Shown here one piece after another: positions 20,751 through 38,657 of a stretch of DNA of 54,717 nt. Position 1 is the first letter of the stretch, and every line of letters starts with the position of its first letter. Origin of the DNA: Pseudomonadota bacterium (GTDB lineage: Bacteria; UBA10199; 2-02-FULL-44-16; JAAZCA01); NCBI GenBank assembly GCA_016927275.1, contig JAFGMW010000064.1, positions 1-54,717 on the forward strand. The letters are read 5' to 3'. The notes under the pieces were generated by a model. That model was given only the letters and a program-made list of their open reading frames with translations, was not told where the DNA came from and did not search any database. Both the position numbers and the translations under genes were made by a program.

Positions 20751-21968
20751 ATGCACTCGGCGGTTCCCGTCACCGATTCGATCACCTGGATAGGCGCCAA
20801 CGACCGCGAGACCGACCTCTTCGAGGGGCTCTGGCCGCTGCCCCGCGGTGTCTCATACAACTCGTACCTCGTGAAGGCCGCGAAGACCGCCGTCATCGAC
20901 ACGGTCAAGCGCAACTCCTTCGACCGCTATCTTGACAACATCCGCCGCTGCGTCGGCTGCGACGGCATCGTCGACTATCTCGTCGTGAACCACATGGAGC
21001 CCGACCACTCCGGCTCGATCCGGCTCCTGCTCAATATCTTCCCCGAGATGAAGATCGTGGGCAACGCGAAGACCGCCGCATTTCTGGAGCAGTTCTACGG
21101 CATCAGGGATAACGTCGTCACGGTGGCCGAAGGCGGGGAGCTCGACCTCGGGGGCAGGGTCCTCGGATTCCACATGACGCCGATGGTCCACTGGCCGGAG
21201 ACGATGATGACCTATGACGCGGCCGAGGGGGTCCTCTTCTCCGGCGACGCATTCGGCGGCTTCGGGGCGCTGGAGGGCGGCATCTTCGACGACGAGGTGG
21301 ACATCGACTACTTCGAGGGCGAGATCCTGCGCTATTTCTCCAACATAGTCGGGAAATACTGCATTCCCGTGCAGGCGGCGCTCAAGAAGCTCGCGGGGCT
21401 CGGCGTGAAGACGATCTGCGCGACGCACGGCCCGATCTGGCGCAAGGACCCTTCATGGATCATCGAGCGCTACGACCGCTGGAGCAGGCACGAGGGCGAG
21501 GAGGGCGTGGTCGTCGTCTACGGCTCCATGTACGGCAACACGGAGAGGATGATGGAGGCCTGTGCCGTGGGTCTGGCGGACGAGGAGGTCTCGCGCGTGC
21601 GCATCCACGACGTCTCGCGCATGCACGTCTCATATCTCATACGCGATGCGTGGCGCTTCCGCGGTCTCATACTCGGCAGCCCGACCTACGACACGGGGCT
21701 CTACCCGCCGATGGACCACTTCATCCGGCTGCTCGCGCACAAGAGGCTCATGAACCGGGTGCTCGGCCTGTTCGGCACCTTCGGCTGGAGCGGAGGCGGG
21801 GTCTCCACGCTCACGGAATTCGCAAAGGGGGGCCGGGGGGCCTGGGATCTGGTCGAGCCGATTGTGGAGGCCAGGTGCGCGCCGAGCGCAGAGGACCTCA
21901 AGAGGTGCGAGGAGCTGGGGCGCAATGTGGTCAAGAGGCTGAGGGGGGAGCTAGAAGCTAGAAGCTAG
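20751..21968 (+). CDS. fprA: Flavodiiron protein (FprA, class A)
   Basis: NHMEPDHSG, MVHWPE, FSGDAFG and THGP diiron ligands; flavodoxin domain YGSMYGNT. Confidence 0.93.
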   Translation: MHSAVPVTDSITWIGANDRETDLFEGLWPLPRGVSYNSYLVKAAKTAVIDTVKRNSFDRYLDNIRRCVGCDGIVDYLVVNHMEPDHSGSIRLLLNIFPEMKIVGNAKTAAFLEQFYGIRDNVVTVAEGGELDLGGRVLGFHMTPMVHWPETMMTYDAAEGVLFSGDAFGGFGALEGGIFDDEVDIDYFEGEILRYFSNIVGKYCIPVQAALKKLAGLGVKTICATHGPIWRKDPSWIIERYDRWSRHEGEEGVVVVYGSMYGNTERMMEACAVGLADEEVSRVRIHDVSRMHVSYLIRDAWRFRGLILGSPTYDTGLYPPMDHFIRLLAHKRLMNRVLGLFGTFGWSGGGVSTLTEFAKGGRGAWDLVEPIVEARCAPSAEDLKRCEELGRNVVKRLRGELEARS

Positions 21969-21991
21969 AAGCTAGAAGCTAGAGGCTGGAG
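21950..21991 (+). repeat. Heptamer tandem array (GCTAGAA)x4 plus 2 degenerate units
   Basis: Read directly; spans the fprA stop codon at 21966-21968. Confidence 0.9.
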
Positions 21992-22086
21992 ACAATCGGT
22001 CGTTTTTCCGGCCCCTTATTTGATTGCAGACTGAATAGCTTATATATATACGGATTGAAAGACACACTCAGCGAAAGGAGATCGAG

Positions 22087-22659
22087 ATGGCACTGAAAGG
22101 CACCAAGACAGAGCGAAACCTTCTGCAGTCGTTCGCTGGCGAGTCGCAGGCGCGCAACCGCTACACCTACTTCGCCAGCCAGGCGAAGAAGGAGGGGTAT
22201 GTCCAGATCTCCCACATATTCGAGGAGACCGCGAACCAGGAGAAGGAGCACGCCAAGCGCTTCTTCAAGTTCCTCGAGGGGGGCATGGCGGAGATCGGCG
22301 GCATGTTTCCGGCCGGAAAGATAGGCACGACGCTCGAGAACCTCGCCGAGGCGGCAGCCGGCGAGCGCAACGAGTGGTCGGAAATGTATCCCGGCTTCGC
22401 CAGGATCGCGCGCGACGAGGGTTTCAAGGAGGTGGCCGAAGCGTTCGAGGCGGTGGCGGTCGCGGAGAAACAGCACATGCGGCGCTACGAGGCGCTCAAG
22501 GCCAACATCGAGAAGGGGATAGTGTTCACGCGGCAGGAGGAGACGACATGGCGGTGCCTCAACTGCGGCTACGTGCACACGGGCAAGGGCGCGCCTGACA
22601 AGTGCCCGGCCTGCCAGCACCCGAAGGCTTATTTCGAGATGCTGGGGGAGAACTGGTAG
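22087..22659 (+). CDS. rbr: Rubrerythrin
   Basis: FAGESQARNRY, ETANQEKEHA, EKQH; C-terminal CLNCG…CPAC. Confidence 0.96.
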   Translation: MALKGTKTERNLLQSFAGESQARNRYTYFASQAKKEGYVQISHIFEETANQEKEHAKRFFKFLEGGMAEIGGMFPAGKIGTTLENLAEAAAGERNEWSEMYPGFARIARDEGFKEVAEAFEAVAVAEKQHMRRYEALKANIEKGIVFTRQEETTWRCLNCGYVHTGKGAPDKCPACQHPKAYFEMLGENW

Positions 22660-22665
22660 TGAAAA

Positions 22666-22712
22666 CCGTGACTCGTAACTCGTAACTCGTGACTCGTGAC
22701 TCGTAACTCGTG
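22666..22712 (+). repeat. Heptamer tandem array (ACTCGTR)x6
   Basis: ccgtg actcgta actcgta actcgtg actcgtg actcgta actcgtg between rbr and dfx. Confidence 0.9.
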
Positions 22713-22737
22713 AATGGTTTGAGAAAAGGGGGGATAT

Positions 22738-23118
22738 ATGGCAACGAAGCTTCTTCAGATCTACAGGTGCGAGGTGTGCGGCAACATGGTGGAGATGGTG
22801 CACGCGGGCGCCGGCGAGCTCGTCTGCTGCGGACAGCCGATGAAGCTGCTTGCGGCGAACACCTCAGACGGGGCCAAGGAGAAGCACGTGCCCGTGATAG
22901 AGAGGACGGACTCCGGGTATCTGGTGAAGGTGGGCAGCGCGCCGCACCCCATGGAGGAGAAGCACTACATAGAGTGGATCGAGCTGATCGCTGACGGACT
23001 CGCGCACAGGCAGTTTTTGAAGCCCGGCGACAAGCCGGAGGCCGCGTTCTGCGTCTTGGCCAAAACCGTCACGGCCCGCGAATACTGCAATATCCACGGG
23101 CTGTGGAAAGGGGAATGA
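22738..23118 (+). CDS. dfx: Desulfoferrodoxin (class I superoxide reductase)
   Basis: CEVCGN…CCGQPM desulforedoxin domain; EKHVP, HPM, HYIEWI, CNIHG. Confidence 0.96.
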
Positions 23119-23150
23119 CCCCCTTTCGATCCCAAGCTCGGCGAGCGCGA

Positions 23151-24833
23151 ATGACTGATACGAGATCTCTAAATATCCTCATCGGCGGCGAGGCGGGCCA
23201 GGGGCTGGTCACGCTCGGCCACCTACTCTCGAAGATGCTCGTGCGCCGGGGGTTTCGCATCGTGGTGTCGCAGGACTACCAGTCCCGCATCCGCGGCGGC
23301 CACAACACCTTCCGGATAAGGGCCTCGTCATCCGAGATCTCGGCGCCTGAGGAGAGGATCGACCTGCTGGTCGCCCTGAACCCCGAGACATTCGAGTTGC
23401 ACCACGCCTCGCTGCGCGAGGGAGGCTACATCCTGGCGTCGGAGAAACACTCGATAGATCACGCGAGGTGTCTCGCGGTCCCCTACAAGGAGCTCGCAGG
23501 CAATCCGCGCTACGATAACACCGTGGCGCTGGGCATATCGTGCGCTTTGCTGGGGCTGCCGAAGGATGCGGCCGCCTCCGCGGTCGAGTCTGCATTCGGC
23601 AGGAAGGAGGCCTCCGTCGTTGAGGCCAACGAGGCGGCCCTCTCCCGTGCATACGAATGGGCGGGGGCGAGGAGGATAGACCGCCTTGGCGAGCCGGAGG
23701 GGGGCGCGGCCCGCATGATGCAGAACGGCAACGAGGCGATAGCGCTCGGCGCGCTCGCCGCGGGGCTCAAGTTCTATGCGTTCTATCCCATGACGCCGGC
23801 GACCTCGATCGCGCTGACCCTCGCCGCGCATTCCCGCAGGATGGGCGTGGTGGTGGAGCAGGTGGAGGACGAGATCGCGGCGATCAACATGGCGATAGGG
23901 GCCTCGTATGCGGGAGCGCCGAGCATGGTCGGCACCTCGGGCGGCGGATTCGCCCTCATGGTCGAGGGCGTGAGCCTCGCCGCCATGACCGAGACTCCTA
24001 TCGTGATAGTTGTCTCGCAGAGGCCGGGGCCGGCCACCGGGCTGCCCACGCGCACGGAGCAGGCGGACCTGGAGCTCGTCCTTCACGCGGGCCACGGCGA
24101 GTTCCCGCGCGCAATATTCGCTCCCGGCACGGTGGAGCAGTGTTTCTCTCTCGCGCACAAGGCCATGCACCTGGCAGAGAGGGTGCAGGGGCCGATATTC
24201 ATCCTCACCGATCAGTATCTTGCGGACTCCTACAGGTCCGTGGAGCCGTTCGATCTCTCTCGTCTCAAGCCGGTCTCGCCGGGCATGGATCCGAAGTCAG
24301 CGGGCGCCGATTACCTCCGCCACAGGATGATGCCGGACGGCATATCGCCGAGGCTCCTCCCGGGCGCCTGCGAGCGCCTTGTGGTGACCGACTCGGACGA
24401 GCACACCGAGGACGGCCACATCACCGAGGACCTCTCCGTCCGAAAGAGGATGGTGGAGAAGAGGCACGCGAAGATGGGGGCGATGATGTCGGAGCTGGTC
24501 TTGCCAACGTACGCGGGCGACGAGGCGGCCGAGCTGCTGATGGTATGCTGGGGCTCCACCAGGGGCATCGTCGACGAGGCGGCCGCATCGATGCGGGCGG
24601 AGGGGCGCAGCGTCGCTGTCATGCACTTCTCGCAGGTCTGGCCGCTGGACCCGGCGCAGTTCCTCGGGAGGCTTCAGGCCGCGAAGAGGGTGGCGGCTGT
24701 GGAGGGCAACTCGACCGCACAGTTCGCGCGGCTCGTCCGCCGCGAGAGCGGATTCGAGATCAAGGAGAGGGTGCTCCGATACGACGGCCTCCCTATCACT
24801 CCGGATTACATATTGAAGGCGCTGGAATCGTAG
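23151..24833 (+). CDS. 2-oxoacid:acceptor oxidoreductase alpha subunit (with N-terminal gamma-like domain)
   Basis: GGEAGQG, YQSRIRGGH, YPMTPAT, EDEIAA, TSGGGFALM, QRPGPATGLPT. Start could be 23115. Confidence 0.93.
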   Translation: MTDTRSLNILIGGEAGQGLVTLGHLLSKMLVRRGFRIVVSQDYQSRIRGGHNTFRIRASSSEISAPEERIDLLVALNPETFELHHASLREGGYILASEKHSIDHARCLAVPYKELAGNPRYDNTVALGISCALLGLPKDAAASAVESAFGRKEASVVEANEAALSRAYEWAGARRIDRLGEPEGGAARMMQNGNEAIALGALAAGLKFYAFYPMTPATSIALTLAAHSRRMGVVVEQVEDEIAAINMAIGASYAGAPSMVGTSGGGFALMVEGVSLAAMTETPIVIVVSQRPGPATGLPTRTEQADLELVLHAGHGEFPRAIFAPGTVEQCFSLAHKAMHLAERVQGPIFILTDQYLADSYRSVEPFDLSRLKPVSPGMDPKSAGADYLRHRMMPDGISPRLLPGACERLVVTDSDEHTEDGHITEDLSVRKRMVEKRHAKMGAMMSELVLPTYAGDEAAELLMVCWGSTRGIVDEAAASMRAEGRSVAVMHFSQVWPLDPAQFLGRLQAAKRVAAVEGNSTAQFARLVRRESGFEIKERVLRYDGLPITPDYILKALES

Positions 24834-24851
24834 GGGCCGATGGCGGCCCTT

Positions 24852-24875
24852 CGAGTAACGAGTAACGAGTCACGG
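24852..24875 (+). repeat. Heptamer tandem array (CGAGTAA)x2-CGAGTCA-CGG
   Basis: Between the alpha stop and the beta start. Confidence 0.8.
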
Positions 24876-24878
24876 ATC

Positions 24879-25730
24879 ATGGTAAATATATCGGATTACG
24901 GAAATCACGAGACCGCATGGTGCCCCGGGTGCGGGAACTTCCCTATCCTCGAGTGCGTGAAGCGGGCGCTCGTGGAGCTCGAGCTCGCCCCGCACCGGGT
25001 CCTCTTCGTGTCGGGCATCGGCCAGGCCGCGAAGGCGCCGCACTACCTCGACTGCAACCTCTTCGACGGCCTGCACGGCAGGGCGCTCCCTGCGGCCACG
25101 GGCGCAAAGCTCGCCAACCGCAGGCTCGCGGTGATCGTGGAGAGCGGGGACGGCTGCGCCTACGGCGAGGGCGGAAACCACTTCCTCGCCGCGATCAGGC
25201 GCAACGTCGACCTCACTTTGATCGTGCACAACAACCAGGTCTACGGCCTCACCAAGGGGCAGGCGAGCCCGACGTCGGAGGAGGGGTTCGTCACGAAGGC
25301 ACAGCCGGCGGGCGTCTTCTCCGAGCCGTTCCATCCGCTCGGGGTGGCGATCGCCATGCACGCGGGGTTCGTGGCGCGCAGCTTCAGCGGGATGAAGGAG
25401 CACGTCGTCGAGATGATCAAGCGGGCGGTCTCGCACCGCGGATTCTCGCTTGTCGACGTTCTGCAGCCGTGCGTCTCCTTCAACAAGGTCAACACCTTCG
25501 CTTGGTACAAGGACCGATGCCGGCCGCTGCCGGAGGGGTACGATCCGACGAACTGGGACGAGGCCATGAGGACCGCCATGCGCTGGGGAGAGGAGATCCC
25601 GATCGGCGTGATCTACGAGAACAGGAGGCGGACCTTCGAGGAGCACTTCGACTGGATAGACGATGGGGGGCTCGTGGACACGCCTTACTCAAGCGAGAGG
25701 CTGGCGGAACTGATCAAGGGCTATGCCTGA
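24879..25730 (+). CDS. 2-oxoacid:acceptor oxidoreductase beta subunit (TPP-binding)
   Basis: WCPGCGNF, SGIGQ, LHGRALP, GDG…GGNH…NN…YGLTKGQASPT. Confidence 0.93.
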   Translation: MVNISDYGNHETAWCPGCGNFPILECVKRALVELELAPHRVLFVSGIGQAAKAPHYLDCNLFDGLHGRALPAATGAKLANRRLAVIVESGDGCAYGEGGNHFLAAIRRNVDLTLIVHNNQVYGLTKGQASPTSEEGFVTKAQPAGVFSEPFHPLGVAIAMHAGFVARSFSGMKEHVVEMIKRAVSHRGFSLVDVLQPCVSFNKVNTFAWYKDRCRPLPEGYDPTNWDEAMRTAMRWGEEIPIGVIYENRRRTFEEHFDWIDDGGLVDTPYSSERLAELIKGYA

Positions 25731-25743
25731 GGCGGGGGGGGGG

Positions 25744-26256
25744 ATGGACTTCAATATCGCAAGGGACACAGCGGGCCTCAACCAGGCGCTCTTCTCGGTG
25801 ACGCACGGCCTCTACATCCTCACATCCAGGGCCGGCGACCGAATCAACGGCCAGTGCCTCGATTCGCTCATGCAGGTGACCAACATGCCGCCGCGCATCG
25901 CCATAGGGGTCGGCAAGCGCTCGCTCACGCACGAGATGATAACGGAGTCCGGGGTCTTCGTGGCCAACGTCATAGACAGGGGTTTTGCCGGGTGCTACGA
26001 CGACGTGAAGCGCTTCGGGTTCCAGAGCGGACGCAAGGTCGACAAGTTTGCGGACAGGGCGCAGGAGCCCGGGGAGATGGGCGCGCCGATCCTTCCGGAG
26101 GCGAAGGCGTTCTACGAGTGCAGGGTGATCAGCGACAAGACGCTGGACCTCGGCACCCACACGCTCTTCGTGGCGGATGTGATAAGGGCCGGCACCCGTG
26201 AATCGGGGGAGCCGCTGACGTATAATGAGTATCGCAGGGTGATGAAAAAGAAATAG
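25744..26256 (+). CDS. Flavin reductase-like protein resembling the N-terminal domain of high-molecular-weight rubredoxin (Hrb)
   Basis: THGLYILTS…INGQ…QVT..PP.IAI…[35 protein letters not shown]. Confidence 0.85.
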
Positions 26257-26282
26257 CACGAGTCACGAGTCACGAGTCACGA
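26257..26282 (+). repeat. Heptamer tandem array (CACGAGT)x3-CACGA
   Basis: Begins on the first base after the flavin reductase TAG. Confidence 0.9.
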
Positions 26283-26299
26283 AAACAGCGGGGGTTCAT

Positions 26300-26464
26300 A
26301 TGCAGAAATGGATATGTCAGGTCTGCGGCTACATCTACGATCCGGCGGCGGGCGACCCGGCCAACGGCGTGGACCCCGGCACCGCCTTCGAGGATCTGCC
26401 GGACGACTGGGTCTGCCCAGAGTGCGGGGTGGGCAAGGACCAGTTCGAGAAGATCCACAACTGA
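26300..26464 (+). CDS. Rubredoxin (54 aa; not in ORF track)
   Basis: [54 protein letters not shown] with two CxxC motifs. Confidence 0.97.
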
Positions 26465-26471
26465 GGCGGCG

Positions 26472-27149
26472 ATGCGCGAGGTCAGGCTCGGGGACGAATC
26501 GTTTCTTCCCACCAAGGTCGTGTGCGTGGGCAGGAACTTCCCTGACCACGCACGGGAGATGGGCGGTGAATCCCCCTTCAGCGAGCCGGTCATATTCATC
26601 AAGCCGAACTCCTCGATAGCGAGCTCCCCCGCCGAGCTCTTCATCCCGGAGGGTCTGGGGCTTCTGCACCACGAGGTCGAGCTGTGCGCGCTGGTTGGCC
26701 GAACGGTCTTCTCCGCCTCCGGGGAGGAGGCGGCCGATGCGGTCGCAGGCTGGGCGGTGGGCATAGACTTCACGCTCAGGGAGAGGCAGGCGGCCGCCAA
26801 GAGGTCGGGCGGGCCCTGGGCGCTCTCTAAGGGTTTCGACGGCGCCGCGGTCCTGGGCGAATTCAGGAGGGCGGGCCGTGATTTCGATCCCGGCTCCGCG
26901 GAGCTTTCGCTCCGTGTCGACGGAAAAGAGCGCCAGCGCGGCAACGCGCGCGACATGACGTTTTCGCCGCAGGAGATAATCGGCTTCGTCTCGGGCTTCA
27001 TGACCCTCGAGCGCGGCGACGTGGTCATGTGCGGCACCCCGGCGGGCGTGGGGCAGGTGAACGACGGGGAGAGGATCAGGGCCGAGGCGGAGGGGCTCGC
27101 GGTCCTTGAGTTCACCCTCAAAAGATCAAGGGGGGGATCATGCATGTGA
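26472..27149 (+). CDS. Fumarylacetoacetate hydrolase family protein (YcgM/FAHD-like)
   Basis: CVGRNFPDHAREM, FIKP, HHEVEL, GIDFTLR, SKGFDG, GTPAGVG. Confidence 0.9.
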   Translation: MREVRLGDESFLPTKVVCVGRNFPDHAREMGGESPFSEPVIFIKPNSSIASSPAELFIPEGLGLLHHEVELCALVGRTVFSASGEEAADAVAGWAVGIDFTLRERQAAAKRSGGPWALSKGFDGAAVLGEFRRAGRDFDPGSAELSLRVDGKERQRGNARDMTFSPQEIIGFVSGFMTLERGDVVMCGTPAGVGQVNDGERIRAEAEGLAVLEFTLKRSRGGSCM

Positions 27150-28240
27150 TAACAGGGGTTCTGTACGAATCCATGTCCCTGCTGTACCAGATGGCGCCCT
27201 ACCTGCTCTTCGGCTTTTTCTTCGCAGGGATACTGCACGCCTTCATATCGCTGGAGTGGATCGCGAGGCACCTGGGCAAAAGCGGCATAGGCTCGGTGGT
27301 CAAATCGGTGGTGCTCGGAATACCGCTCCCGCTGTGCTCCTGCGGCGTCATACCGGCCGCCATGATGCTGAACAAGAAGGGGGCGAGCCGCGGCTCCGTG
27401 GTGAGCTTTCTGATCGCCACGCCGATAACCGGCGTGGACTCGATACTCGCTACCTACTCGCTCATGGGCCTCTTCTTCACCGTCTTTCGGGTGATCTCCT
27501 CCGCGGTCACGGCGATCGTGGCCGGGATCATGGGGAACCTCTTTCTCGCCACCAGGCACGAGCCTCTGGCCCAGGGGCCCGACCTTTCGAAGGAGGGTGA
27601 GCGCTGCCGCGTGTGCGGGCACGAGGGGCATGAGATCAACGAGCGAGCGAGGTGCGAGAAGCCCCAGTGGTGGCGGATGGGCAGGATCTACGAGATGATC
27701 CGTTACGCCTTCGGCGAGCTGCTGGCCGACATATGGCGGTGGCTCGTCGTGGGCCTGCTCATCGGAGGGATCATCTCCTACGCCGTGCCCGACGAGCTTA
27801 TCACCCGCTACCTCGGCTCCCCGTTTCTCTCCATGATCGTGATGCTGCTGGTGGGAATCCCGATGTACGTCTGCTCCACGGGGTCCCTGCCCATCGCCGC
27901 GGCGCTCATGCTCAAGGGGATGAGCCCTGGCGCCGCCATGGTGTTTCTGCTCGCGGGGCCGGCCACGAACGCGGTCACCATCACGGTGGTGGCAAAGGAG
28001 CTGGGCAGGGGCGCGGCGTCGATCTACGTGGCCACCATCGCGGTGATGAGCGTCGCCTTCGGATTCGCGCTCAACTGGCTCTGGTACGGTGCCGGGATGT
28101 CGGCGCAAGTCGTCCACCATGTCGGGTTCGCGCTCCCGGCGTGGGCGGAGAAGGTCTCTGCGGTCCTTTTCCTCGCGCTCGTCCTCAACGTGGCGGTGCG
28201 GGGCATAATAAAGAGCTCAAAGGTGAAAGGTGAAAGGTGA
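27140..28240 (+). CDS. DUF318-family predicted permease with Cys/His loop
   Basis: PLPLCSCGVIP and PMYVCSTGSLP repeats, FLLAGPATN; central CRVCGHEGHE loop. Confidence 0.85.
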   Translation: MHVITGVLYESMSLLYQMAPYLLFGFFFAGILHAFISLEWIARHLGKSGIGSVVKSVVLGIPLPLCSCGVIPAAMMLNKKGASRGSVVSFLIATPITGVDSILATYSLMGLFFTVFRVISSAVTAIVAGIMGNLFLATRHEPLAQGPDLSKEGERCRVCGHEGHEINERARCEKPQWWRMGRIYEMIRYAFGELLADIWRWLVVGLLIGGIISYAVPDELITRYLGSPFLSMIVMLLVGIPMYVCSTGSLPIAAALMLKGMSPGAAMVFLLAGPATNAVTITVVAKELGRGAASIYVATIAVMSVAFGFALNWLWYGAGMSAQVVHHVGFALPAWAEKVSAVLFLALVLNVAVRGIIKSSKVKGER

Positions 28241-28251
28241 AAGGTGAAAGG
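28219..28251 (+). repeat. Heptamer tandem array (AAAGGTG)x4
   Basis: Spans the permease TGA (28238-28240) and abuts the tkt start. Confidence 0.9.
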
Positions 28252-28255
28252 GGTT

Positions 28256-30244
28256 ATGATGAAGGGGAAGATCGACGAGCTGTGCGTGAACGCGTTGAGG
28301 ATGCTGGCCATAGACGCGGTGGACCGCGCAAAGTCAGGGCACCCGGGCATGCCGCTCGGCGCCGCCCCCATGGCGTACGCCCTCTGGACCGGCTTCCTCA
28401 GGCACAATCCCGCAAATCCCGCCTGGTTCGGCCGCGACCGATTCATACTCTCGGCGGGCCACGGCTCCGCGCTCCTCTATGCGTTGCTTAATCTTTCAGG
28501 TCACGACCTCTCCATGGAGGAGATAAAGAACTTCAGGCAATACGGCAGCCGCACTCCCGGCCATCCTGAGCGCTGCGCCGGCTGCGGCATCGAGGTCACC
28601 ACGGGGCCCCTCGGCCAGGGGTTCGCGATGGGGGTCGGCATGGCCATGGCCGAGCGATTCATGGCGGCCCGCTACAACAGGCCCGGGCTCAATGTCATCG
28701 ATCATCACACATGCTCGATAATTTCGGACGGCGACCTCATGGAGGGGGTGTCCTCGGAGGCGGCCTCTATCGCGGGACACCTCAAGCTCGGAAAGCTGAT
28801 CTATCTCTACGACGACAACCACATCTCCATCGAGGGGAGCACCGATCTCGCGTTCTCCGAGGACGTGCTGCGCCGCTTCGACGCCTGCGGCTGGCACACG
28901 GAGCGGGTGAAGGACGGCAACGACCTGGCCGCGATCGCAAAGGCGATCGGGAGGGCGAGGGCGGAGGGCGAGCGGCCGTCGCTGATCGCGGTGCGCACCC
29001 ACATCGGATTCGGCAGCCCGAAGCATGACACCGCCTCTGCGCACGGCGAGCCGCTGGGCGCGGAGGCCAACCGGGCGACGCGGGAGTTCTTCGGCTGGCA
29101 GCGCGCGCCGTTCGAGGTGCCGGAGGAGGTGCGCGGGCGCTTCGCGAAGGCGGCAGAGGAGGGCGCCCGCCGCGAGGGGGAGTGGAACGGGCTGATGCAG
29201 CGCTACCGCGAGAAGCACCCCGAGGATGCGGCGAGGCTCGATGACGAGATCGCGGGGAGACTGCCTGCGGGATGGGAGGAGGTTCTGCCCGCCTTCGAGG
29301 CCGGGAAGGCCGTTGCCACGCGCGCGGCGTCCGGGAAGGCGATCAACGCACTGGCCAGGGCGCTGCCGAACCTCATCGGCGGGTCGGCCGATCTAGGCCC
29401 CTCCAACAAGAGCACGATCGACGGCGGCGGCGACTTCGAGGCGGCGAACCACGCGGGCCGCAACATCCACTTCGGCGTGCGCGAGCATGCCATGGGCGCG
29501 ATCGTGAACGGCCTTGCCGTGCACGGCGGCATCATCCCGTTCGGCGCGACGTTCCTCGTCTTCTCCGATTATATGCGGCCGTCGATCAGGATAGCGGCCC
29601 TGATGCAGTCGCGCTCCATCTTCGTCTTCACGCACGACTCGCTCGGCATCGGCGAGGACGGCCCCACCCACCAGCCGATAGAGCACCTTGCCTCGCTGCG
29701 CGCCATGCCCGGGATAGTCGTGATCCGCCCTGCGGACGCGAACGAGACCGCGGCCGCATGGCGATGGGCGATATCGAGCGGACGGCCTGTGGCGCTGGCG
29801 CTCTCGCGGCAGAACCTGCCGGTGCTCGACCGCGATGCGGTGGAGCGGGCAGGCGGGGTGGAGAGGGGCGCCTACGTCCTCTCCGAATGCGAGGGCGAGC
29901 CCGACGCCATAATCATCGCCACCGGCTCCGAGGTGCACCTGGCGCTGGAGGCGCAGTGCTGGCTCCTCTCCGAGCATATCCCCGTGCGCGTGGTCTCCAT
30001 GCCGTCGTGGGAGCTCTTCGAGGAGCAGCCGGAGGGGTATCGGGACTCGGTGCTCCCCCCCTCCGTGAAGGCCAGGGTCGCCGTGGAGGCGGGGGCCACC
30101 TTCGGCTGGAGCCGCTGGGTGGGGGAGTCGGGCCGCGTGGTCGGCGTCGACCGCTTCGGCGCCTCGGCGCCGGGAGAGGTGGCCATGGAGCGGCTGGGCA
30201 TCACCGCCGACGCTGTGATCAGGGCGGTGAAGGAGATCCTCTGA
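28256..30244 (+). CDS. tkt: Transketolase
   Basis: [28 protein letters not shown]…[24 protein letters not shown]. Confidence 0.97.
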
Positions 30245-31139: not shown

Positions 31140-32078
31140 TCACCCCTCCTCGTCGAGGCACCTCTCGCCGGCGCGGCGGCGGGGCCCCAGCGCATCCCTT
31201 TCGCCCCTCGGAAATATCACGAACTTCTTCACCATGTGGTCGGGGTGGTAGCTCTCCTTGGCCTTTCTCAGTCCCGGGATCCCCACGTCCTGCTCGCGGT
31301 TGACGAACTCAAACCGGGACAGCCCGTTCTTGCAGTACCAGTGATTGATCAGCTGGTACAGCCCCTTGAACTGGGGCATCGCCTTCTCGACGTGTATGAC
31401 CGCGGTGTTTTCGTTCAGGCGCTGGCCGACCGTGAAGGCCTCTATGCGGCCGTCGATGCGGATAGCGGCCCCGGTCACGCTGAGATTGTCGAACTCCTCC
31501 AGAACAGTCTTCACGGCCCGGTACTCGCTGCACAGCCCACGGTCGTCACGGCATCTGCGCCAGTCGCACCAGCGATCCATCATCGGCCGCAGCTCGTGAA
31601 GGTTTTTCGGGGATATCTCCTCGTATGTGCAGTCGTATTCGGCAAGGCACTGGGCGATGAGATTGCGCTTGCTGTGGTACCTCCTGCCGGCGAGCTCCGC
31701 CAGGTCTTCCCTTCGGTAGACATAGTCGTAGAGGTCCGCCTCCTCCTCGATCTGCCAGCCTTGGCCGGGAACCGAATGCGCCCGCGCCTCTCCGATCCGC
31801 TCGAAGCCCGCCACTTTTTTACCCGTCGCCCCCTCCACCTCTCTTGCAGCTTCGGCAAGGGGGATGGGCCCTATCGGCGAGCCGACGAGCACCACCCCGC
31901 GGTCGCGCTCATCGAACAGGACGAGGGAATCGTCCGCGTCCAGCGCCTGGAAAGGGTGGGAATCGCTCCACATGAACATGTTCGTGAAGGTCTGTTCGGA
32001 GAGCACAGTGGGGTAGCGGGCCAGCCTATCCTCATAGACGGCCCTCTGGTCGAGGGAAATCGGTCCCAGCATCTTCAT
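31140..32078 (-). CDS. DUF2156 / phosphatidylglycerol lysyltransferase C-terminal-like protein
   Basis: DYVY…LAELAGRRYHSKRN, IHVEKA, FVNREQDVGIPGLRKAKESYHP. Confidence 0.88.
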   Translation of the reverse strand: MKMLGPISLDQRAVYEDRLARYPTVLSEQTFTNMFMWSDSHPFQALDADDSLVLFDERDRGVVLVGSPIGPIPLAEAAREVEGATGKKVAGFERIGEARAHSVPGQGWQIEEEADLYDYVYRREDLAELAGRRYHSKRNLIAQCLAEYDCTYEEISPKNLHELRPMMDRWCDWRRCRDDRGLCSEYRAVKTVLEEFDNLSVTGAAIRIDGRIEAFTVGQRLNENTAVIHVEKAMPQFKGLYQLINHWYCKNGLSRFEFVNREQDVGIPGLRKAKESYHPDHMVKKFVIFPRGERDALGPRRRAGERCLDEEG

Positions 32079-32206
32079 CTCGGTGCCTCTCCGCTGCCGT
32101 TACGGGAGCCCCTGCTGTATCCCATTGATATCAGATGTCAAACTTGTAATCATCGCGCCCGGATGCTACATGGTGGCATCATTATAATAGACACGGAGGC
32201 GACCCG

Positions 32207-33109
32207 ATGCAGATAGGCATGATCGGACTTGGCCGCATGGGGATGAACATGGTCCGCCGCCTCGTCAAGGGCGGCCACGAGGTCGTGGTCTACAACCGCA
32301 CGCAGGACAAGGTGCGCGCGATGGAGGCGGAGGGGGCCGGGGGCGCCGCATCGATCGAGGACCTCGCGGCCAAGCTCGCGAAGCCACGCGTGGTCTGGCT
32401 CATGCTCCCGGCCGGCAAGGTGACCGAGGAGCACATCGCCGCGCTTGCCGGCAAGCTCTCCGAGGGGGACCTCGTCGTGGACGGCGGAAACTCGTGGTTC
32501 GAGCACGACAACGAGCGCGCGTACGCGCTCGGCGCCAGGGGCATACGCTACCTGGACGCCGGCGTCTCGGGCGGCGTGTGGGGGCTCAAGGTCGGATACT
32601 GCACGATGGTGGGGGGCGAGAGGTCCGACTTCGACACGATCGAGCCGGTGCTGAAATCGCTTGCCCCCGAGGGGGGCTATATGCACTGCGGCCCTGCGGG
32701 GGCCGGCCACTTCGTCAAGATGGTGCACAACGGCATCGAGTACGCCATGATGCAGGCCTACGGCGAGGGGTTCGAGATCATGAAGGCCTCGCGCTTCGGC
32801 GAGGGTCTGGACCTCTCCGCGGTGGCGCGCATCTGGAACCGGGGGAGCGTGGTGCGCTCGTGGCTTCTTGAGCTGCTCGAGTCGGCGCTGGCAAAGGACC
32901 CAGGGCTCGCGGGGATAAGTGGATATGTCGAGGACTCGGGCGAGGGACGCTGGACCGTGCAGCAGGCGATGGACTCCGGCGTGCCCGCCACGTCGATCGC
33001 GCACGCGCTCTTCGCCAGGTTCCGCTCCCGCGAGCGGGACTCGTTCTCGGACAAGGTTCTGGCCGCGCTGCGGGGCGAGTTCGGCGGGCACGAGGTGAAG
33101 AAGGCCTGA
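32207..33109 (+). CDS. gnd: 6-phosphogluconate dehydrogenase (decarboxylating, short YqeC type)
   Basis: GLGRMG, DGGNS, DAGVSGG, GHFVKMVHNGIEY, DSGEGRWT, FGGH. Confidence 0.96.
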   Translation: MQIGMIGLGRMGMNMVRRLVKGGHEVVVYNRTQDKVRAMEAEGAGGAASIEDLAAKLAKPRVVWLMLPAGKVTEEHIAALAGKLSEGDLVVDGGNSWFEHDNERAYALGARGIRYLDAGVSGGVWGLKVGYCTMVGGERSDFDTIEPVLKSLAPEGGYMHCGPAGAGHFVKMVHNGIEYAMMQAYGEGFEIMKASRFGEGLDLSAVARIWNRGSVVRSWLLELLESALAKDPGLAGISGYVEDSGEGRWTVQQAMDSGVPATSIAHALFARFRSRERDSFSDKVLAALRGEFGGHEVKKA

Positions 33110-33127
33110 TGGGATGACGGGGGGATC

Positions 33128-34636
33128 ATGGCCGAGTTTCGGACACAGCTCAGAGAGACCTCGAACCTCTGCGTGGAGGAGAGGCCGGGGCCCTGCACCA
33201 TGGTCATCTTCGGCGCCTCGGGCGATCTTGCCAGGAGAAAGCTCATCCCAGCCGTCTACAACCTCCACAGGCGCGAGCTGCTCCCTGAGAAGTTCGAGGT
33301 CGTGGGCTTCGCGCGCAGCGGGATCTCCGACGTCGATTTCAGGGCGCGCGTGGTCGATGCGGTGCGCGCCTGCTGCCTGGGCGTCTCCTCGAGAGAAGTT
33401 GAGCGGTTTTCAACGAACTTTCATTATCAGAGGGGAGAATACAACGACGCGGAGGCGTACCGATCGCTCGCCAGGACGCTCTCCGACTTTGGCGCGCGCA
33501 GGGCTGCGGGCGGCTGCCACGTATTCTACCTCGCCACCCCGCCGAGGCTCGCCCCCGAGATAGTTGCGCATCTGGCCGGCGCCGGCCTTCTCGCGGAGTG
33601 CACCGAGGGGCCGGCCTGCTCGCGCGTGGTGGTGGAGAAGCCGTTCGGCTTCGACCTTGCGAGCGCGCGGGAGCTCGACCAAAGGCTCGCCGAGCACCTG
33701 GACGAGCGCCAGATCTACCGCATAGACCACTACGTGGGCAAGGAGACGGTCCAGAACATGCTCATGTTCCGGTTCGCCAACGCGATCTTCGAGCCGGTGT
33801 GGGACGCGCACTACATCGACCAGGTGCAGATAACCACCGCCGAGTCGGAGGGTGTGGAGGGGAGGGCCGGCTACTTCGACGAGGCCGGCGCGCTCCGCGA
33901 CGTGTTCCAGAACCACATGCTCCAGATGATGGCCACCGTGGCCATGGAGCCGCCGTCCTCCTTCGACGCGAAGAGCGTGCGCGACGAGAAGACGAGGATC
34001 CTCAGGGCGATCAGGCACATCGACCCTTCGAAACCGTGCGCAGGCGTTGTGCGCGGGCAGTACGAGGGCTATCCCGCGGAGGAGGGCGTGGCCCCCGGCT
34101 CGCAGACCGAGACATACGTAGCGGCCGAGCTCCGCGTGGAGAACACGAGGTGGCAGGGGGTGCCGTTCTACCTGCGCACCGGAAAGCGCCTTTGCCGCCG
34201 CGCCAGCGAGATCGCCATATTCTTCAGGCGGGTCCACGACTCGATGTTCGCTCCGTTTCTCCCCGACGACATCTGCCCGAACGTGCTCGTGTTCAACGTC
34301 CAGCCCGACGAGGGGGTCTCGCTGTCGATACAGGCCAAGGGCCCGGGCCCCAAGCTCTGCATGGGCACCCTCTCGATGGAGTTCAGGTACAGGGCGGCGG
34401 GGCTCGACCTGCCCGACGCCTACGAGCGGCTCCTGCTCGACTGCATGCAGGGGGACCAGACGCTGTTCATCCGCAGCGACGCGCTCGAGGCGGCATGGTC
34501 GATCGTGGACCCGATACGAAGGGGCTGGGACGCCGGCCTCGGGTGCCCGTTGATCCGCTATCCGGCCGGTTCAGAGGGGCCGGCTGAGGCCGCATCCATC
34601 CCGGCGAGGATCGGCCGCGCCTGGAGGCCGATCTGA
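33128..34636 (+). CDS. zwf: Glucose-6-phosphate 1-dehydrogenase
   Basis: GASGDLARRK, EKPFG, RIDHYVGKE, DVFQNH, RWQGVPF, DAYERL. Confidence 0.96.
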   Translation: MAEFRTQLRETSNLCVEERPGPCTMVIFGASGDLARRKLIPAVYNLHRRELLPEKFEVVGFARSGISDVDFRARVVDAVRACCLGVSSREVERFSTNFHYQRGEYNDAEAYRSLARTLSDFGARRAAGGCHVFYLATPPRLAPEIVAHLAGAGLLAECTEGPACSRVVVEKPFGFDLASARELDQRLAEHLDERQIYRIDHYVGKETVQNMLMFRFANAIFEPVWDAHYIDQVQITTAESEGVEGRAGYFDEAGALRDVFQNHMLQMMATVAMEPPSSFDAKSVRDEKTRILRAIRHIDPSKPCAGVVRGQYEGYPAEEGVAPGSQTETYVAAELRVENTRWQGVPFYLRTGKRLCRRASEIAIFFRRVHDSMFAPFLPDDICPNVLVFNVQPDEGVSLSIQAKGPGPKLCMGTLSMEFRYRAAGLDLPDAYERLLLDCMQGDQTLFIRSDALEAAWSIVDPIRRGWDAGLGCPLIRYPAGSEGPAEAASIPARIGRAWRPI

Positions 34637-34691
34637 AGCAAGGCAGCTCGGCTAGGCTCTGCGGTTTGTCGTTGCATTATAGTAAGTGATG

Positions 34692-34707
34692 GACTTGTAT
34701 ACAACTC
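34692..34707. promoter_or_regulatory. Palindromic operator candidate upstream of hcp
   Basis: GACTTGTATACAACTC with a perfect 10-bp core TTGTATACAA, about 30 bp before the hcp ATG. Confidence 0.45.
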
Positions 34708-34737
34708 GCAGTCAAACCGTCGATTCGGGAGGGGACC

Positions 34738-36387
34738 ATGGAAATGTTCTGCTATCAGTGCGAACAGAGGGCAAAGGACACCGGCTGCACGGTCCAGGGG
34801 GTGTGCGGCAAGTCGCCTGAGGTCTCCTCGCTCATCGACCTCGCCGTGCACGGGGTGAAGGGCGTGGCGCAGTACGCGCATCGCGCTCGCGCGCTCGGCG
34901 CGCGCGACCGGGAGGTCGATCTCGCGGTCACGGAGGCGCTGTTCTCCACGGTCACCAACGTCAACTTCGACCCCGAACGCTACGTGAAACTCCTTGCCCG
35001 CGTGGCAGCTGCGCGCGACCGGGCGAAGGCGATCTACGAAGATGCGTGCGGAAAGGCAGGCAGGGCGCCCGAAAATGTCACGGGCCCTGCGGAGTGGAGG
35101 CCGGCTGCAGACCTCGCGGGCCTCGAGAAGCAGGGGCTCGAGGTGGGGATCAAGAAGAGGATGGCGAAGCACGGCGAGGACGTGGCGGGCCTCATGGAGC
35201 TGGTCACCTACGGGCTCAAGGGCATGGCGGCCTACGCGGACCACGCGCAGATACTCGGCCGCGAGGACGAGTGCGTCTACGCCTTCTTCCACGAGGCGCT
35301 GTGCTACCTCGCCGAGGGGAAGGAGGACGCGAACGAGCTCACGGCCATGGCGCTGCGCACCGGCGAGACGAACCTGCGCGTGATGGAGCTGCTCGACGCG
35401 GCAAACACCGGCGCGTACGGGAATCCCGCTCCGACGAAGGTCCGCATCGAGCCCGTGAAGGGCAAGGCCATCCTCGTCTCCGGCCACGACCTCCGCGACC
35501 TCGAGGAACTGCTCAAGCAGACCGAGGGCAAGGGTATAAACGTCTACACGCACGGCGAGATGCTGCCCTGCCACGGATACCCTGGGCTCAGGAAATTCAA
35601 ACACCTGGCAGGCAACTACGGCGGGGCGTGGCAGGACCAGCAGAGGGAGTTCGACAGGTTCCCCGGCGCGATCCTCATGACCACCAACTGCATCCAGAGG
35701 CCGCAGGGCTCCTACAAGGCGCGCATATTCACCTCGGGGCTTGTCGCCTGGCCGGGGGTCAGGCACATCTCCGACCGCAACTTTGGCCCGGTGATCGAGG
35801 CTGCGCAGATGGCGGAGGGGTTTCCCGAGGACGGCCCCGAGAGATACATCACGGTCGGATTCGGCCACAACGCGGTGATGGGGGTCGCGGACACGGTGGT
35901 GGATGCTGTGAAGGCTGGGAAGATAAAGCACTTCTTCCTGATCGGCGGGTGCGACGGCGCAAAGAGCGGCCGCAACTACTACACGGAGTTTGCGGAGAAG
36001 GTGCCGAAGGATTGCGTGATACTGACGCTGGCTTGCGGCAAGTACCGCTTCAACAAGCTCGATTTTGGCGACATAGGCGGGATACCGCGCCTCATCGACT
36101 GCGGACAGTGCAACGACGCATACTCGGCGATACAGATCGCGGTCGCGCTCTCAAAGGCCTTCAATTGCGGCGTGAACGACCTGCCGCTCTCGCTCGTGCT
36201 CTCGTGGTACGAGCAGAAGGCGGTGGCTATCCTGCTCACGCTGCTCCACCTCGGCATAAGGGACATGCGCCTGGGGCCCACGCTGCCCGCGTTCGTGACT
36301 CCCGCGGTCTTCAAGGTCCTGGTCGAAAAATTCAACATCATGCCGATCACCACGCCAGATGAGGATTTGAGGAAGATACTCGGGTAG
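34738..36387 (+). CDS. hcp: Hybrid cluster protein (hydroxylamine reductase), class I spacing
   Basis: CYQCEQRAKDTGCTVQGVCGK (C-x2-C-x8-C-x5-C), YTHGEMLP, TTNC, GGCDG, GQCND. Confidence 0.96.
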   Translation: MEMFCYQCEQRAKDTGCTVQGVCGKSPEVSSLIDLAVHGVKGVAQYAHRARALGARDREVDLAVTEALFSTVTNVNFDPERYVKLLARVAAARDRAKAIYEDACGKAGRAPENVTGPAEWRPAADLAGLEKQGLEVGIKKRMAKHGEDVAGLMELVTYGLKGMAAYADHAQILGREDECVYAFFHEALCYLAEGKEDANELTAMALRTGETNLRVMELLDAANTGAYGNPAPTKVRIEPVKGKAILVSGHDLRDLEELLKQTEGKGINVYTHGEMLPCHGYPGLRKFKHLAGNYGGAWQDQQREFDRFPGAILMTTNCIQRPQGSYKARIFTSGLVAWPGVRHISDRNFGPVIEAAQMAEGFPEDGPERYITVGFGHNAVMGVADTVVDAVKAGKIKHFFLIGGCDGAKSGRNYYTEFAEKVPKDCVILTLACGKYRFNKLDFGDIGGIPRLIDCGQCNDAYSAIQIAVALSKAFNCGVNDLPLSLVLSWYEQKAVAILLTLLHLGIRDMRLGPTLPAFVTPAVFKVLVEKFNIMPITTPDEDLRKILG

Positions 36388-36397
36388 GGATCGGTGA

Positions 36398-37309
36398 TCA
36401 GCTCATGAATTTCTCATAGAACAGCCCCCACTTCACCCCCCGGTCGGAGACCGTCACGTCCGCGTAACCCAAATGGCTCATGGCCTCGTGCAGGACGAGC
36501 GATCCGGCCAGTATAACGTCGGCCCTCTCCGGGTTCAGCCCCCTGATCGAGCGGCGCTCCGAGAGGCTCTTTCCCCGCAGCATATCCATGATGTCGCGCA
36601 GATCCGTGATCCTCAGGACCTTTCCGTGCACGGCGGGGGGCGAGTACCGCTCGAGCGAGAGGTGAATGGACATGAGCGTCGTGGCGGTGCCCGCCGTGGC
36701 CACGAGCCTCGCCTCGTGCGGCCTCGCGAACGTGTGGGGATCCGCGCCGGCGGCGAGCTCGTGCCTCACGGCGCCCCTCAGCGCATCGATCTCGCGGTCG
36801 TCCGGCGGATCGGAGCGCGCGTATCGCTCGGTGAGATTCACGCACCCGACGGGCAGGCTCGCGATCCTGAGCGACGAGTCGTGCATGGTGACGAGCTCCG
36901 TCGAGCCGCCGCCGACATCCGCGACCACGATCGAATCGCCGAAGTCGTGCGCCGAGGCCTTGTATGTGAGGCCCGCCTCCCGTTCCTCGGAGATCACCTC
37001 GATGGAGAGGCCAAGCGCCCTCTTGACCATGAGCAGGAAGTCGGACGCGTTCGAGGCGCTGCGCAGCGCGGCGGTGCCCACCGCCGCGATCCCGTCCACG
37101 CGGAGGGAGTCGCAGATCTCCATGTACTCCTTGAGGGCGGCGAGCGTCCCCTCCGCGGCCTCGGGCGAGATCTCGCCCGAGGAGGACAGCCCCCGGCCGA
37201 GCCTGGTGACGCGCGCCTCGTCCGCATGGGGACGCACCGATCCGTCCGGCGCCGGCTCCCCGGCGAGGAGGAGCACGGAGTTCGTGCCGATGTCTATCGC
37301 GGCCTTCAT
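36398..37309 (-). CDS. Ppx/GppA family phosphatase (short form)
   Basis: Start reset to MKAAIDIGTNSVLL; GTAALR, EREA, DVGGGSTE, RADVILAG, GVKWG. Confidence 0.9.
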   Translation of the reverse strand: MKAAIDIGTNSVLLLAGEPAPDGSVRPHADEARVTRLGRGLSSSGEISPEAAEGTLAALKEYMEICDSLRVDGIAAVGTAALRSASNASDFLLMVKRALGLSIEVISEEREAGLTYKASAHDFGDSIVVADVGGGSTELVTMHDSSLRIASLPVGCVNLTERYARSDPPDDREIDALRGAVRHELAAGADPHTFARPHEARLVATAGTATTLMSIHLSLERYSPPAVHGKVLRITDLRDIMDMLRGKSLSERRSIRGLNPERADVILAGSLVLHEAMSHLGYADVTVSDRGVKWGLFYEKFMS

Positions 37310-37317
37310 GGTTTGGC

Positions 37318-38607
37318 CTATTCGGGCCTCTTCTGCGGGCCCCACACGGGCAGCATGCCGTTGCCCTTGGAGACGCGTGTCTGGTTGGAGCCGTCGGCGC
37401 GCATGATGTAGATGGCGGCTCCTCCCTCGCGGCTGGAGGAGAAGGTGATCATCCTGCCGTCGGGAGAGAACGAGGGGTGCTCGTTGCTGCCGGTCCCGAT
37501 GGTGAGCCTCTGGATGTTCGAGCCGTCGGCGTTCATGATGAATATGTCGAAGGTCCCCATGTCGCGGCCCGCGAACGCTATCTTGTCGCCGATCGGCGAC
37601 CAGCTCGGCATGTCGTTCTGGTAGCCCACGAAGGTGAGCCGCTGCACGCCGCCGCCCGAGGCGGAGGTGCGGAATATGTGCAGCCCTCCCGCGCGCTCTG
37701 AGGCGAAGACGATGGAGCCGCCGTCGGGCGAGTAGTCGGGCGATATGTCGATGCTGCTGCCCGCGGTGAGCCTTCGCGCCGCGCCGCCGCCCGGGCTTAT
37801 CGTGTAGAGGTTGGCGGTCCCGGCCGCCGAGGAGGAGAATGCGATGATGCCGCCGTCGGGGGACCATGCGGGCGTTATGTTCGATCCGCCGATCGAGATC
37901 CTGTGAAGGTTGCCGCCGTTGAGGCTCGAGACGTACACGTCCGGGTTGTTTTTGAGGTACGAGGTAAAGGCGAGCCTTCCGCCGTCGGGGCTCCAGGCGG
38001 AGCCCATGTTGATGCTCTTGTTCTTGGTCACCGCGAACGGCCCGTGGCCGTCCATGTCCATCACGTAGATCTCCTTGCTCTTCTTGCCGGACACCGCTGT
38101 GTAGGAGATCCTGGTGTCGAAGACGCCCCAGATGCCGGTGAGGGCCAGCATGATCTCGTTGGAGAAGCGGTGGGCGATCTCGCGCATGCTCTTCTTGTCC
38201 GCCCGGTACTGCTTGCCCACCAGCATCTGCTTGAGGAACGGGTCGAAGAGCCGAAGCGTCACGGTCATCTTGCCGCCTTCGCTCGACACCTCGCCCTTGA
38301 CCAGGGCCCCCGCTTCGATGGCGGTCCAGAAGTCGAAGCGGATGGTGTCTATCGAGATCCCCTCCTTGCGCGCCACGTCCTTGAACGAGTCCTCGGACAG
38401 GACCCTGAAGTACCCGGAGAGCTCCATGTCGTTGCGGATTATCCCGGCCATGTCGCGGCCGCCGGACCCGCGCAGGTCCGCGACGGCGATGGGGAACTTC
38501 TGGTCGGACGGCTGATCGATGGGCACGTAGATGCGCGCCCACGCCCCCATTGGCAGGAGCATCGCCGCCATCAGCGCCACCGTGAAAAAGATCTTTCTGT
38601 TTTTCAT
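37318..38607 (-). CDS. tolB: Tol-Pal beta-propeller protein TolB
   Basis: Signal peptide, FPIAV…DMELSGYF N domain, repeated P.WSPDG (PD40) blades. Confidence 0.93.
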   Translation of the reverse strand: MKNRKIFFTVALMAAMLLPMGAWARIYVPIDQPSDQKFPIAVADLRGSGGRDMAGIIRNDMELSGYFRVLSEDSFKDVARKEGISIDTIRFDFWTAIEAGALVKGEVSSEGGKMTVTLRLFDPFLKQMLVGKQYRADKKSMREIAHRFSNEIMLALTGIWGVFDTRISYTAVSGKKSKEIYVMDMDGHGPFAVTKNKSINMGSAWSPDGGRLAFTSYLKNNPDVYVSSLNGGNLHRISIGGSNITPAWSPDGGIIAFSSSAAGTANLYTISPGGGAARRLTAGSSIDISPDYSPDGGSIVFASERAGGLHIFRTSASGGGVQRLTFVGYQNDMPSWSPIGDKIAFAGRDMGTFDIFIMNADGSNIQRLTIGTGSNEHPSFSPDGRMITFSSSREGGAAIYIMRADGSNQTRVSKGNGMLPVWGPQKRPE

Positions 38608-38628
38608 AGTCTCCCCGTTTTTTCCGCC

Positions 38629-38657
38629 AGTCACGAGTCACGAGTCACGAGTCACGG
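38629..38657 (+). repeat. Heptamer tandem array (CACGAGT)x3-CACGG
   Basis: Between the tolA stop and the tolB start. Confidence 0.9.

Follow-up and report, generated by a model that had tools for sequence, protein, structure and literature searches.

How do tandem arrays with a unit of 7 nucleotides (nt) come to lie at one gene junction after another? The question is raised by contig JAFGMW010000064.1 (assembly GCA_016927275.1), part of a metagenome-assembled genome of an uncultured sediment bacterium; its whole length of 54,717 nt is referred to here as the window. Six such arrays, A1 to A6, are found in it, each between co-oriented genes, and five of them lie in a single operon. Our analysis suggests that the arrays are heptanucleotide simple-sequence repeats which probably arose from short seeds, were amplified by slippage and survived only where they were tolerated. 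The class to which they belong has already been described, and the locus reveals no new kind of system.

The six arrays, which had been reported at these places in an original prediction made from the sequence alone, were recovered by Tandem Repeats Finder and by an exact scan. According to Tandem Repeats Finder, A1 (21949-21987, + strand) comprises 5.6 copies of AGCTAGA, A2 (22667-22713, + strand) 6.4 copies of CGTGACT/CGTAACT, A3 (24852-24874) 3.3 copies of CGAGTAA, A4 (26257-26282) 3.7 copies of CACGAGT, A5 (28219-28251, + strand) 4.7 copies of AAAGGTG and A6 (38629-38656) 4.0 copies of AGTCACG. Three unrelated unit families are represented, namely AGCTAGA, NACGAGT and AAAGGTG. NACGAGT is the main family, accounting for four of the six arrays (A2, A3, A4 and A6). 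Relative to transcription it runs in the sense direction in A3 and A4 and in the antisense direction in A2 and A6; on the NACGAGT strand three of the four arrays end in CACGG and one in CACGA, exactly as predicted. In the exact scan of the 54.7-kb window, four arrays had at least 3 perfect copies at period 7, and periods 5, 6 and 8-15 gave zero. No period-7 array with at least 3 perfect copies was obtained in 200 first-order Markov simulations of the window, so the claim that the repeats are specific to period 7 and not random was borne out. The non-coding part of the window (6.8% in a curated gene map) contains every period-7 repeat, in agreement with the claimed placement at gene junctions; period-4 and period-6 repeats are mostly within genes. 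The clustering of five of the six arrays within 6.3 kb also held, with P = 0.0026 under random choice among 45 junctions.

Whether the arrays are products of assembly or sequencing was judged from metagenomic contigs. Sampled words of the window were present to 98% in run X1, a sediment metagenome, and to 34% in run X2, a hot-spring metagenome. Logan contigs of these two independent runs span A1 (154 nt, run X2), A3 (1390 nt, run X1) and A4 (3009 nt, run X1) without differences, and in the junction alignments conserved flanks directly border the arrays. The points that would speak for an artefact are the breaks of Logan contigs inside the longer arrays A2 and A6 and a poly-G run at the window end. 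We find an artefactual origin hardly credible, and the concern about it in the original prediction is answered by the three spanned arrays. The poly-G run itself (19 G, 54695-54713, at the contig end) looks like a two-colour Illumina artefact rather than biology. Contigs of run X1 pile up on the two broken arrays, 160 at A2 and 78 at A6. Several of the array-matching contigs are at the depth of this genome (32-48x) and have the array joined to other flanks, which indicates that many copies of the NACGAGT family are present in this genome or its community. Several contigs at genome depth terminate at CACGG or CACGGT, and in three at that depth an ACTCGTN array faces an inverted NACGAGT array about 14-23 nt away. 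To judge from these contigs, hairpin-forming inverted pairs of the family exist elsewhere in this genome or its community. A contig joint at A2, a single one that 'goes back 35' among the Logan contigs, was ambiguous.

Relatives bear on the age of the arrays. The nearest ones, with 83% identity in the oxidoreductase beta subunit encoded next to A3, are loci L002 and L125-L128, which share the gene order of the window at 75-81% nucleotide identity. No period-7 array was found in about 20 kb of each of them, and some 190 kb of relatives that share this gene order contained no perfect period-7 run of at least 18 nt. Empty sites at orthologous junctions, to which the original prediction had looked, were clean at five junctions in the sister genomes, and the gains measured 30-67 nt in the junction alignments. 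At the A1 junction 50-67 nt were gained, with AGAGGCTG on both sides (21934-21941 and 21981-21988). At that of A2 a gain of about 57 nt separates TGGTAG-TGAAAA from AAGGGGGG and is flanked by GAAAA at either end (22661-22665 and 22723-22727). The A3 junction gained 30 nt after ATGG, which is repeated (24840-24843 and 24870-24873), and the A4 junction gained 31 nt between the stop codon and GCGGGGG. At A5 the C-terminus of the upstream permease and the ribosome-binding region were rewritten. These alignments indicate that the arrays are in all likelihood recent gains in this lineage, made after its split from the sister species. A more distant relative (L003, 72%) holds a different heptamer at the junction corresponding to A3, 3.4 copies of CGTCGTT together with an inverted copy; this stretch (L003, 9904-9990) folds to a long hairpin of -40.9 kcal/mol (z-score -3.5). 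Protein relatives are labelled Deltaproteobacteria or unclassified bacterium. A scan of GTDB representative genomes gave one distant locus only (L001, 54% identity), and an exact protein look-up of the rubrerythrin of the window returned no record.

The four main-family arrays share one end. Read as ACTCGTN, all of them begin with (C/T)CG, followed by TGACTCG and (TNACTCG)n. The full extent of A2 (22666..22719, + strand) is CCG, six units of TGACTCG or TAACTCG and the tail TGAATGG; on the - strand, A3 (24844..24875) reads CCG, TGACTCG and twice TTACTCG, A4 (26257..26282) reads TCG(TGACTCG)x3 TG, and A6 (38629..38657) reads CCG(TGACTCG)x3 TGACT GG. In the window, exact matches to the 10-mer CCGTGACTCG are confined to the heads of A2, A3 and A6, and A4 is headed by TCGTGACTCG. 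The tails differ (TGAATGG, AAGGGCC, TGCTATT and TGACTGG). Within the about 190 kb of relatives, CCGTGACTCG was present at the orthologous site of A6 only, the junction of tolA and tolB. This site is found in L429, a locus identified via TolB relatives; it is 83% identical, and its sample also yielded L125. L429 reads TAA-AGA-CCGTGACTCG where the window reads TAA-ATA-CCG(TGACTCG)3TGACTGG, so that one copy of the unit in L429 stands against 3.7 units in the window beside the same flank. At tolA-tolB the terminus is no more than ancestral sequence flanking a seed in single copy, which speaks for amplification in place and not for the addition of a ready-made array. The CACG(G/A) terminus is the fixed head viewed from the other strand, and at A6 it is ancestral sequence. 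The original prediction had offered templated addition or insertion as one reading of the shared terminus; the tolA-tolB comparison speaks against ready-made additions.

In L429 (5859-5905) a CCTG/CAGG palindrome made up of tetranucleotide repeats (CCTGCCTGCC/GGCAGGCAGGCAGG) comes straight after the seed CCGTGACTCG. The tolA-tolB junction gathers different short repeats in different lineages.

How far the polar design extends was seen in metagenomes scanned for three NACGAGT units, which yielded at least 120 contigs with a GC content from 0.34 to 0.74; most of the matches listed were GACGAGT. No homology to the window was found at these loci outside the arrays themselves. Among the same matches, the 3' phase was nearly uniform over 126 arrays of the family, with an end at ...ACG in 15/126, and the CACGAGT subfamily showed a mild excess (10/21 ending in CACG or CACGA). 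The CCG head also occurs in two unrelated contigs, L108 and L111, and the tail TGACTGG is common to A6 and both arrays of L111. The polar design therefore holds within a sub-lineage of arrays without extending to the whole NACGAGT family: of the predicted shared terminus, the fixed head in the four arrays of this genome stood, and its generality did not. In L111 (1032-1186) two convergent genes end in ...PERP*, the stop codon lying inside CCG-TGA-CTCG, such that the stop is supplied by the first unit of each array; its two arrays are inverted and about 90 nt apart.

The metagenome contigs also bear on the unit length. The contigs retrieved through a NACGAGT array (among the matches listed) total 718 kb, and in them further arrays of unrelated units with at least 3 perfect copies numbered 62 at period 7 and 6, 20, 7 and 2 at periods 5, 6, 8 and 9, respectively. 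Genomes that bear one array are thus prone to heptamers, in line with what Mrazek et al. (2007) reported, as summarised in PMC4679880 and PMC4692102. A universal preference for period 7 was tried and rejected, as scans of viral contigs with the same hexamer gave 34/42/43 contigs at periods 6/7/8; the lack of a preference there implies that the preference belongs to certain bacterial genomes. NACGAGT as a special cosmopolitan unit was likewise rejected, with 42 viral contigs against 23, 37 and at least 120 for composition-matched shuffled heptamers (x3 copies). A sorting of 164 metagenome arrays into genic and intergenic by crude open reading frames was discarded as unreliable, since the greedy caller mislabels even the window's own genes in high-GC DNA. 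One 3.7-kb contig (L043) carries eight arrays in total and looks like a heptamer-array hotspot; about 1.4 kb of it (1333-2731) is devoid of a convincing open reading frame and holds four arrays of at least 4 copies, three of them unrelated to the main family, plus a short edge array.

The genes on either side of the arrays were identified by Pfam scans of the window. On the + strand, A1 lies between the genes for a flavodiiron protein (20709-21968) and rubrerythrin (22087-22659), A2 between those for rubrerythrin and desulfoferrodoxin, and A3 between those for the alpha (23103-24833) and beta (24870-25730) subunits of a 2-oxoacid:ferredoxin oxidoreductase. The beta subunit gene is followed by flavin reductase, A4, rubredoxin, FAA hydrolase, an ArsP-type permease (27140-28240), A5 and transketolase, and later by 6PGDH, G6PDH and hybrid-cluster protein. 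A1 to A5 fall within one conserved 13-gene operon. On the - strand the order is tolQ-tolR-tolA, A6, tolB-ppx. The neighbours of the arrays are housekeeping redox, pentose-phosphate and Tol genes.

A2 begins 7 nt past the stop codon of the rubrerythrin gene and leaves 24 nt to the ATG of desulfoferrodoxin; A4 follows the flavin-reductase stop immediately and leaves 17 nt to the ATG of rubredoxin; A6 is found between the stop codon of tolA (38661) and the ATG of tolB (38607). The ribosome-binding site downstream of these three arrays is preserved. The distance from array end to the next start codon is 0 to 24 nt; A1 is the exception, its end lying about 100 nt upstream. In A1 and A5 the array covers the final 5-7 codons of the preceding open reading frame and supplies its stop codon, TAG (21966-21968) for the flavodiiron protein and TGA (28238-28240) for the permease. 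The predicted location at or just after a stop codon and never inside genes was consequently right as to the junctions and wrong in detail, given these two overlaps and the possible translation of A3. In A5, Shine-Dalgarno-like AGGTGA/AAAGGGG stands just upstream of the transketolase ATG at 28258; AGGTGA is complementary to the conserved 3' tail of 16S rRNA. A3 is contained in a 30-nt in-frame insertion flanked by two ATGs (24840 and 24870). It may be translated, and judging from the two in-frame ATGs it is the sole array whose length could matter for switching of the phase-variation type. In the database protein and in orthologues the beta subunit starts at the second ATG and reads MVNISDY. 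The first ATG is enclosed by a GC hairpin at 24834-24849 (GGGCCG, loop ATGG, CGGCCC), which is not in the sister genomes and so belongs to the gain. Next to A1 and to the L429 seed there are small GC hairpins as well. Sense-strand stop codons are present in five of the six arrays, A4 having none. The idea of an all-frame stop cassette was dropped; survival of repeats that start at or after a stop codon is a simpler explanation.

Upstream of the rubrerythrin gene, an AT-rich block, TGATTGCAGACTGAATAGCTTATATATATAC (22021-22051), is almost identical in L002 and L125 despite a diverged spacer. From this conservation it probably combines operator and promoter of the oxidative-stress operon. It is directly preceded by A1 and a small hairpin (21984-22013).

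At the RNA level, five of the six array stretches were less structured than shuffles (z-scores +0.4 to +2.4), and the A3 stretch gave -0.26 owing to the GC hairpin upstream of the array. No Rfam family matched the arrays at gathering score. Counts of promoter-like and terminator-like sites were not above those in shuffles, and the only terminator-like sites nearby follow A1 (21984-22013). None of the transcriptome runs contained this organism: even the best matched no more than 8% of sampled words, and these came from conserved stretches of rubrerythrin; the metatranscriptome contigs of the same study gave essentially no coverage of the window. A HutP/TRAP-like RNA-binding idea, with NAG-N4 spacing, was rejected because the sense RNA of A2 and A6 contains no AG.

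The explanation that we favour, as more likely than not, has three steps. A short seed would already be present at a gene junction, or would be copied into one; for the main family it would be the 10-mer CCGTGACTCG, whose two CG dinucleotides 7 nt apart could serve as microhomology. The 7-nt unit would then be amplified by replication slippage away from the fixed head, to 3-6 copies. Selection would finally purge frame-breaking repeats from the coding DNA of a tightly packed operon. Arrays would be expected to survive in the stretch from a stop codon to the following ribosome-binding site, at gene ends whose last few codons are overwritten by a unit with a sense stop codon of its own (A1 and A5), or at a start codon, as 30 nt inserted in frame (A3). 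Once transcribed, the arrays would act as unstructured spacers, and any effect on expression would come through spacing or translational coupling and not through a specific signal. We infer slippage as the engine, the seeding of new junctions and near-neutrality of the arrays. Slippage is the simplest engine for growth in copy number, contrary to the original prediction, which had set it aside in favour of other mechanisms, and it is possible that a templated insertion step seeds new junctions.

Several observations weigh against this account. Three of the four main-family arrays are at junctions that are empty in relatives and have no convincing local seed. Given a unit shared among such junctions, it is unlikely that slippage alone gave rise to each array independently, and some copying from locus to locus is required. 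Duplications of 3-8 nt (AGAGGCTG, GAAAA and ATGG) flank the gains, which also contain some non-repeat linker and look like insertions. Slippage leaves unexplained both the clustering of five arrays in 6.3 kb (P = 0.0026) and the period of 7 itself. In a rival account the main-family arrays would be copies of a small polar element, with head CCGTGACTCG/CCG, body (TNACTCG)n and tail TGA(C/A)TGG, pasted beside stop codons in either orientation by a templated or enzyme-driven process. Template switching in repair or replication is an example; it would leave the 3-8 nt duplicated microhomologies behind, and slippage would only adjust the copy number afterwards, extending away from the head. The head 10-mer common to A2, A3 and A6, the tail that A6 shares with both L111 arrays and that reads TGAATGG in A2, the duplications around gains at empty junctions and the occurrence of both orientations are all consistent with an element, as are the 78-160 contigs of the source metagenome that match arrays, several of them ending in CACGG or CACGGT at genome depth. 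The duplications, however, are of no fixed length (3, 4, 5 and 8 nt), which is not the pattern of transposase cuts, and the Pfam scans found no reverse transcriptase, transposase, Y1 transposase or RAYT gene in the window. The single seed at the orthologous tolA-tolB site of the sister species fits growth in place, A1 and A5 occupy the same kind of site with unrelated units, and the end phases of the 126 metagenome arrays are nearly uniform. On balance we regard such an element as unlikely. If it were real, it would offer a concrete, testable mechanism for the long-unexplained spread of genome-specific heptamer families.

Two functional explanations have to be set beside amplification and tolerated survival. 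The arrays might be cis-regulatory sites at which a protein binds the RNA (S1, Csp or a CsrA-like one) or the DNA (a regulator) and so adjusts how the next cistron is translated. Their short distance to the next start codon, A1 apart, suits such a role, as do their lack of structure, which is that of standby or enhancer sites, and the Shine-Dalgarno-like AGGTGA units of A5. Comparable proposals have been made for the TAACTGA repeats of Beggiatoaceae and for Nostoc heptamers, with a reporter effect in Nostoc (PMC4679880; 10.1101/2022.06.06.494920). Yet the six arrays are built from three unrelated units, the main family is found both ways round relative to the mRNA and hence differs in RNA sequence, the distance to the start codon is variable, no Rfam family matches, and identical operons run without arrays in sister genomes. 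A regulatory role of this kind is, in our estimation, distinctly improbable. Alternatively, A2 might pair with A3 or A4 over 2-3.5 kb in the operon transcript, and RNase III or a similar enzyme might cut the duplex and segment the mRNA. For A2:A4 the predicted duplex energy is -46.7 kcal/mol and for A2:A3 it is -33.6 kcal/mol, against an operon background with mean -12.5 and sd 4.2, and hairpin-forming inverted heptamer pairs occur in L003 (z-score -3.5), in L111 and in contigs of the source metagenome. This complementarity is automatic when one unit family is present in two orientations. A1, A5 and A6 have no partner and relatives have no arrays; we consider duplex cutting very unlikely. The suggestion in the original prediction that the arrays are marks which segment operons finds no support, in view of the three unrelated units, the two orientations, the unstructured RNA, the absence of an Rfam match and the array-free operon of the sisters.

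As intergenic heptamer repeats have been known for decades, the arrays can be placed among described systems. Heptanucleotides are the most abundant long simple repeats in most of the prokaryotic genomes examined by Mrazek, Guo and Shah (2007), as their work is summarised in PMC4679880 and PMC4692102. Heptamer repeats are intergenic, genome-specific, variable in length between relatives and in some cases inverted; they are described without a known function, and slippage of the polymerase is proposed to drive them (PMC4679880, PMC4692102, 10.1101/2022.06.06.494920). The arrays of the window show every defining feature that was tested of the intergenic heptanucleotide simple-sequence repeats (long simple sequence repeats, LSSR, 5-11, or STRR-like), namely head-to-tail tandems of 7 nt beyond chance, a non-coding location, an excess of period 7 in the window and in the array-bearing contigs, and variation among relatives. 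Like LSSR 5-11 they consist of tandem 7-nt units, which in that class number from few to tens of copies, are intergenic and abundant only in certain genomes, include several unit families per genome, vary between close relatives and have slippage as the proposed engine. They differ in coming from a new lineage (an uncultured metagenome-assembled genome labelled Deltaproteobacteria), in their new units, in the availability of empty-site comparisons and in the single-copy seed of a sister.

The STRR sequences of Calothrix and Nostoc are likewise intergenic heptamer arrays of unknown function, often inside operons (pecE-pecF, PMC4692102). The arrays here are shorter (3-6 copies) and their host is not a cyanobacterium, whereas STRR1 (CCCCAGT), STRR2 (TTGGTCA) and STRR3 (CAACAGT) belong to heterocystous cyanobacteria and have other units; rotated STRR3 (AGTCAAC) and AGTCACG are alike at only 5/7 positions. 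The TAACTGA repeats of Beggiatoaceae (MacGregor 2015, PMC4679880) resemble the present arrays in having 2-6 copies, in being intergenic and near the next start codon, in units with stop codons, in occasional inverted pairs and in having no known spreading mechanism. They have one dominant orientation and overlap the ribosome-binding site, in contrast to the three families and two orientations found here, and Tandem Repeats Finder detected no TAACTGA array in the window. The Xanthomonas GGGAATC and Nostoc GGGGA(T/C)T repeats (Rehm et al. 2015, PMC4692102) are also heptameric, intergenic, variable in length between related species and sometimes inverted; they are G-rich and form quadruplexes, whereas the units here have no G-tracts and fold poorly. 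REP and BIME sequences share with the arrays that they are short, dispersed, intercistronic, found in both orientations and lineage-specific. REP sequences are 20-40 nt long, imperfectly palindromic and moved by RAYT transposases; the arrays here are direct repeats without palindrome, in a window in which no RAYT gene was seen.

The value of the locus lies in its use as a test case for slippage versus templated seeding. It is a compact natural experiment with five arrays in one operon, none in the sisters and one single-copy seed kept at an orthologous site. The events are pinned to one lineage, and the look of a newborn array emerges: its head is fixed, its tail varies and its flanks carry short duplications. 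Three kinds of position are seen to tolerate an array: between stop codon and ribosome-binding site, in replacement of C-terminal codons, and in frame at a start codon.

Elsewhere in the window, a gene for a HipA-like kinase toxin with HipA_C and Couple_hipA domains is located at 53299-54534 on the - strand.

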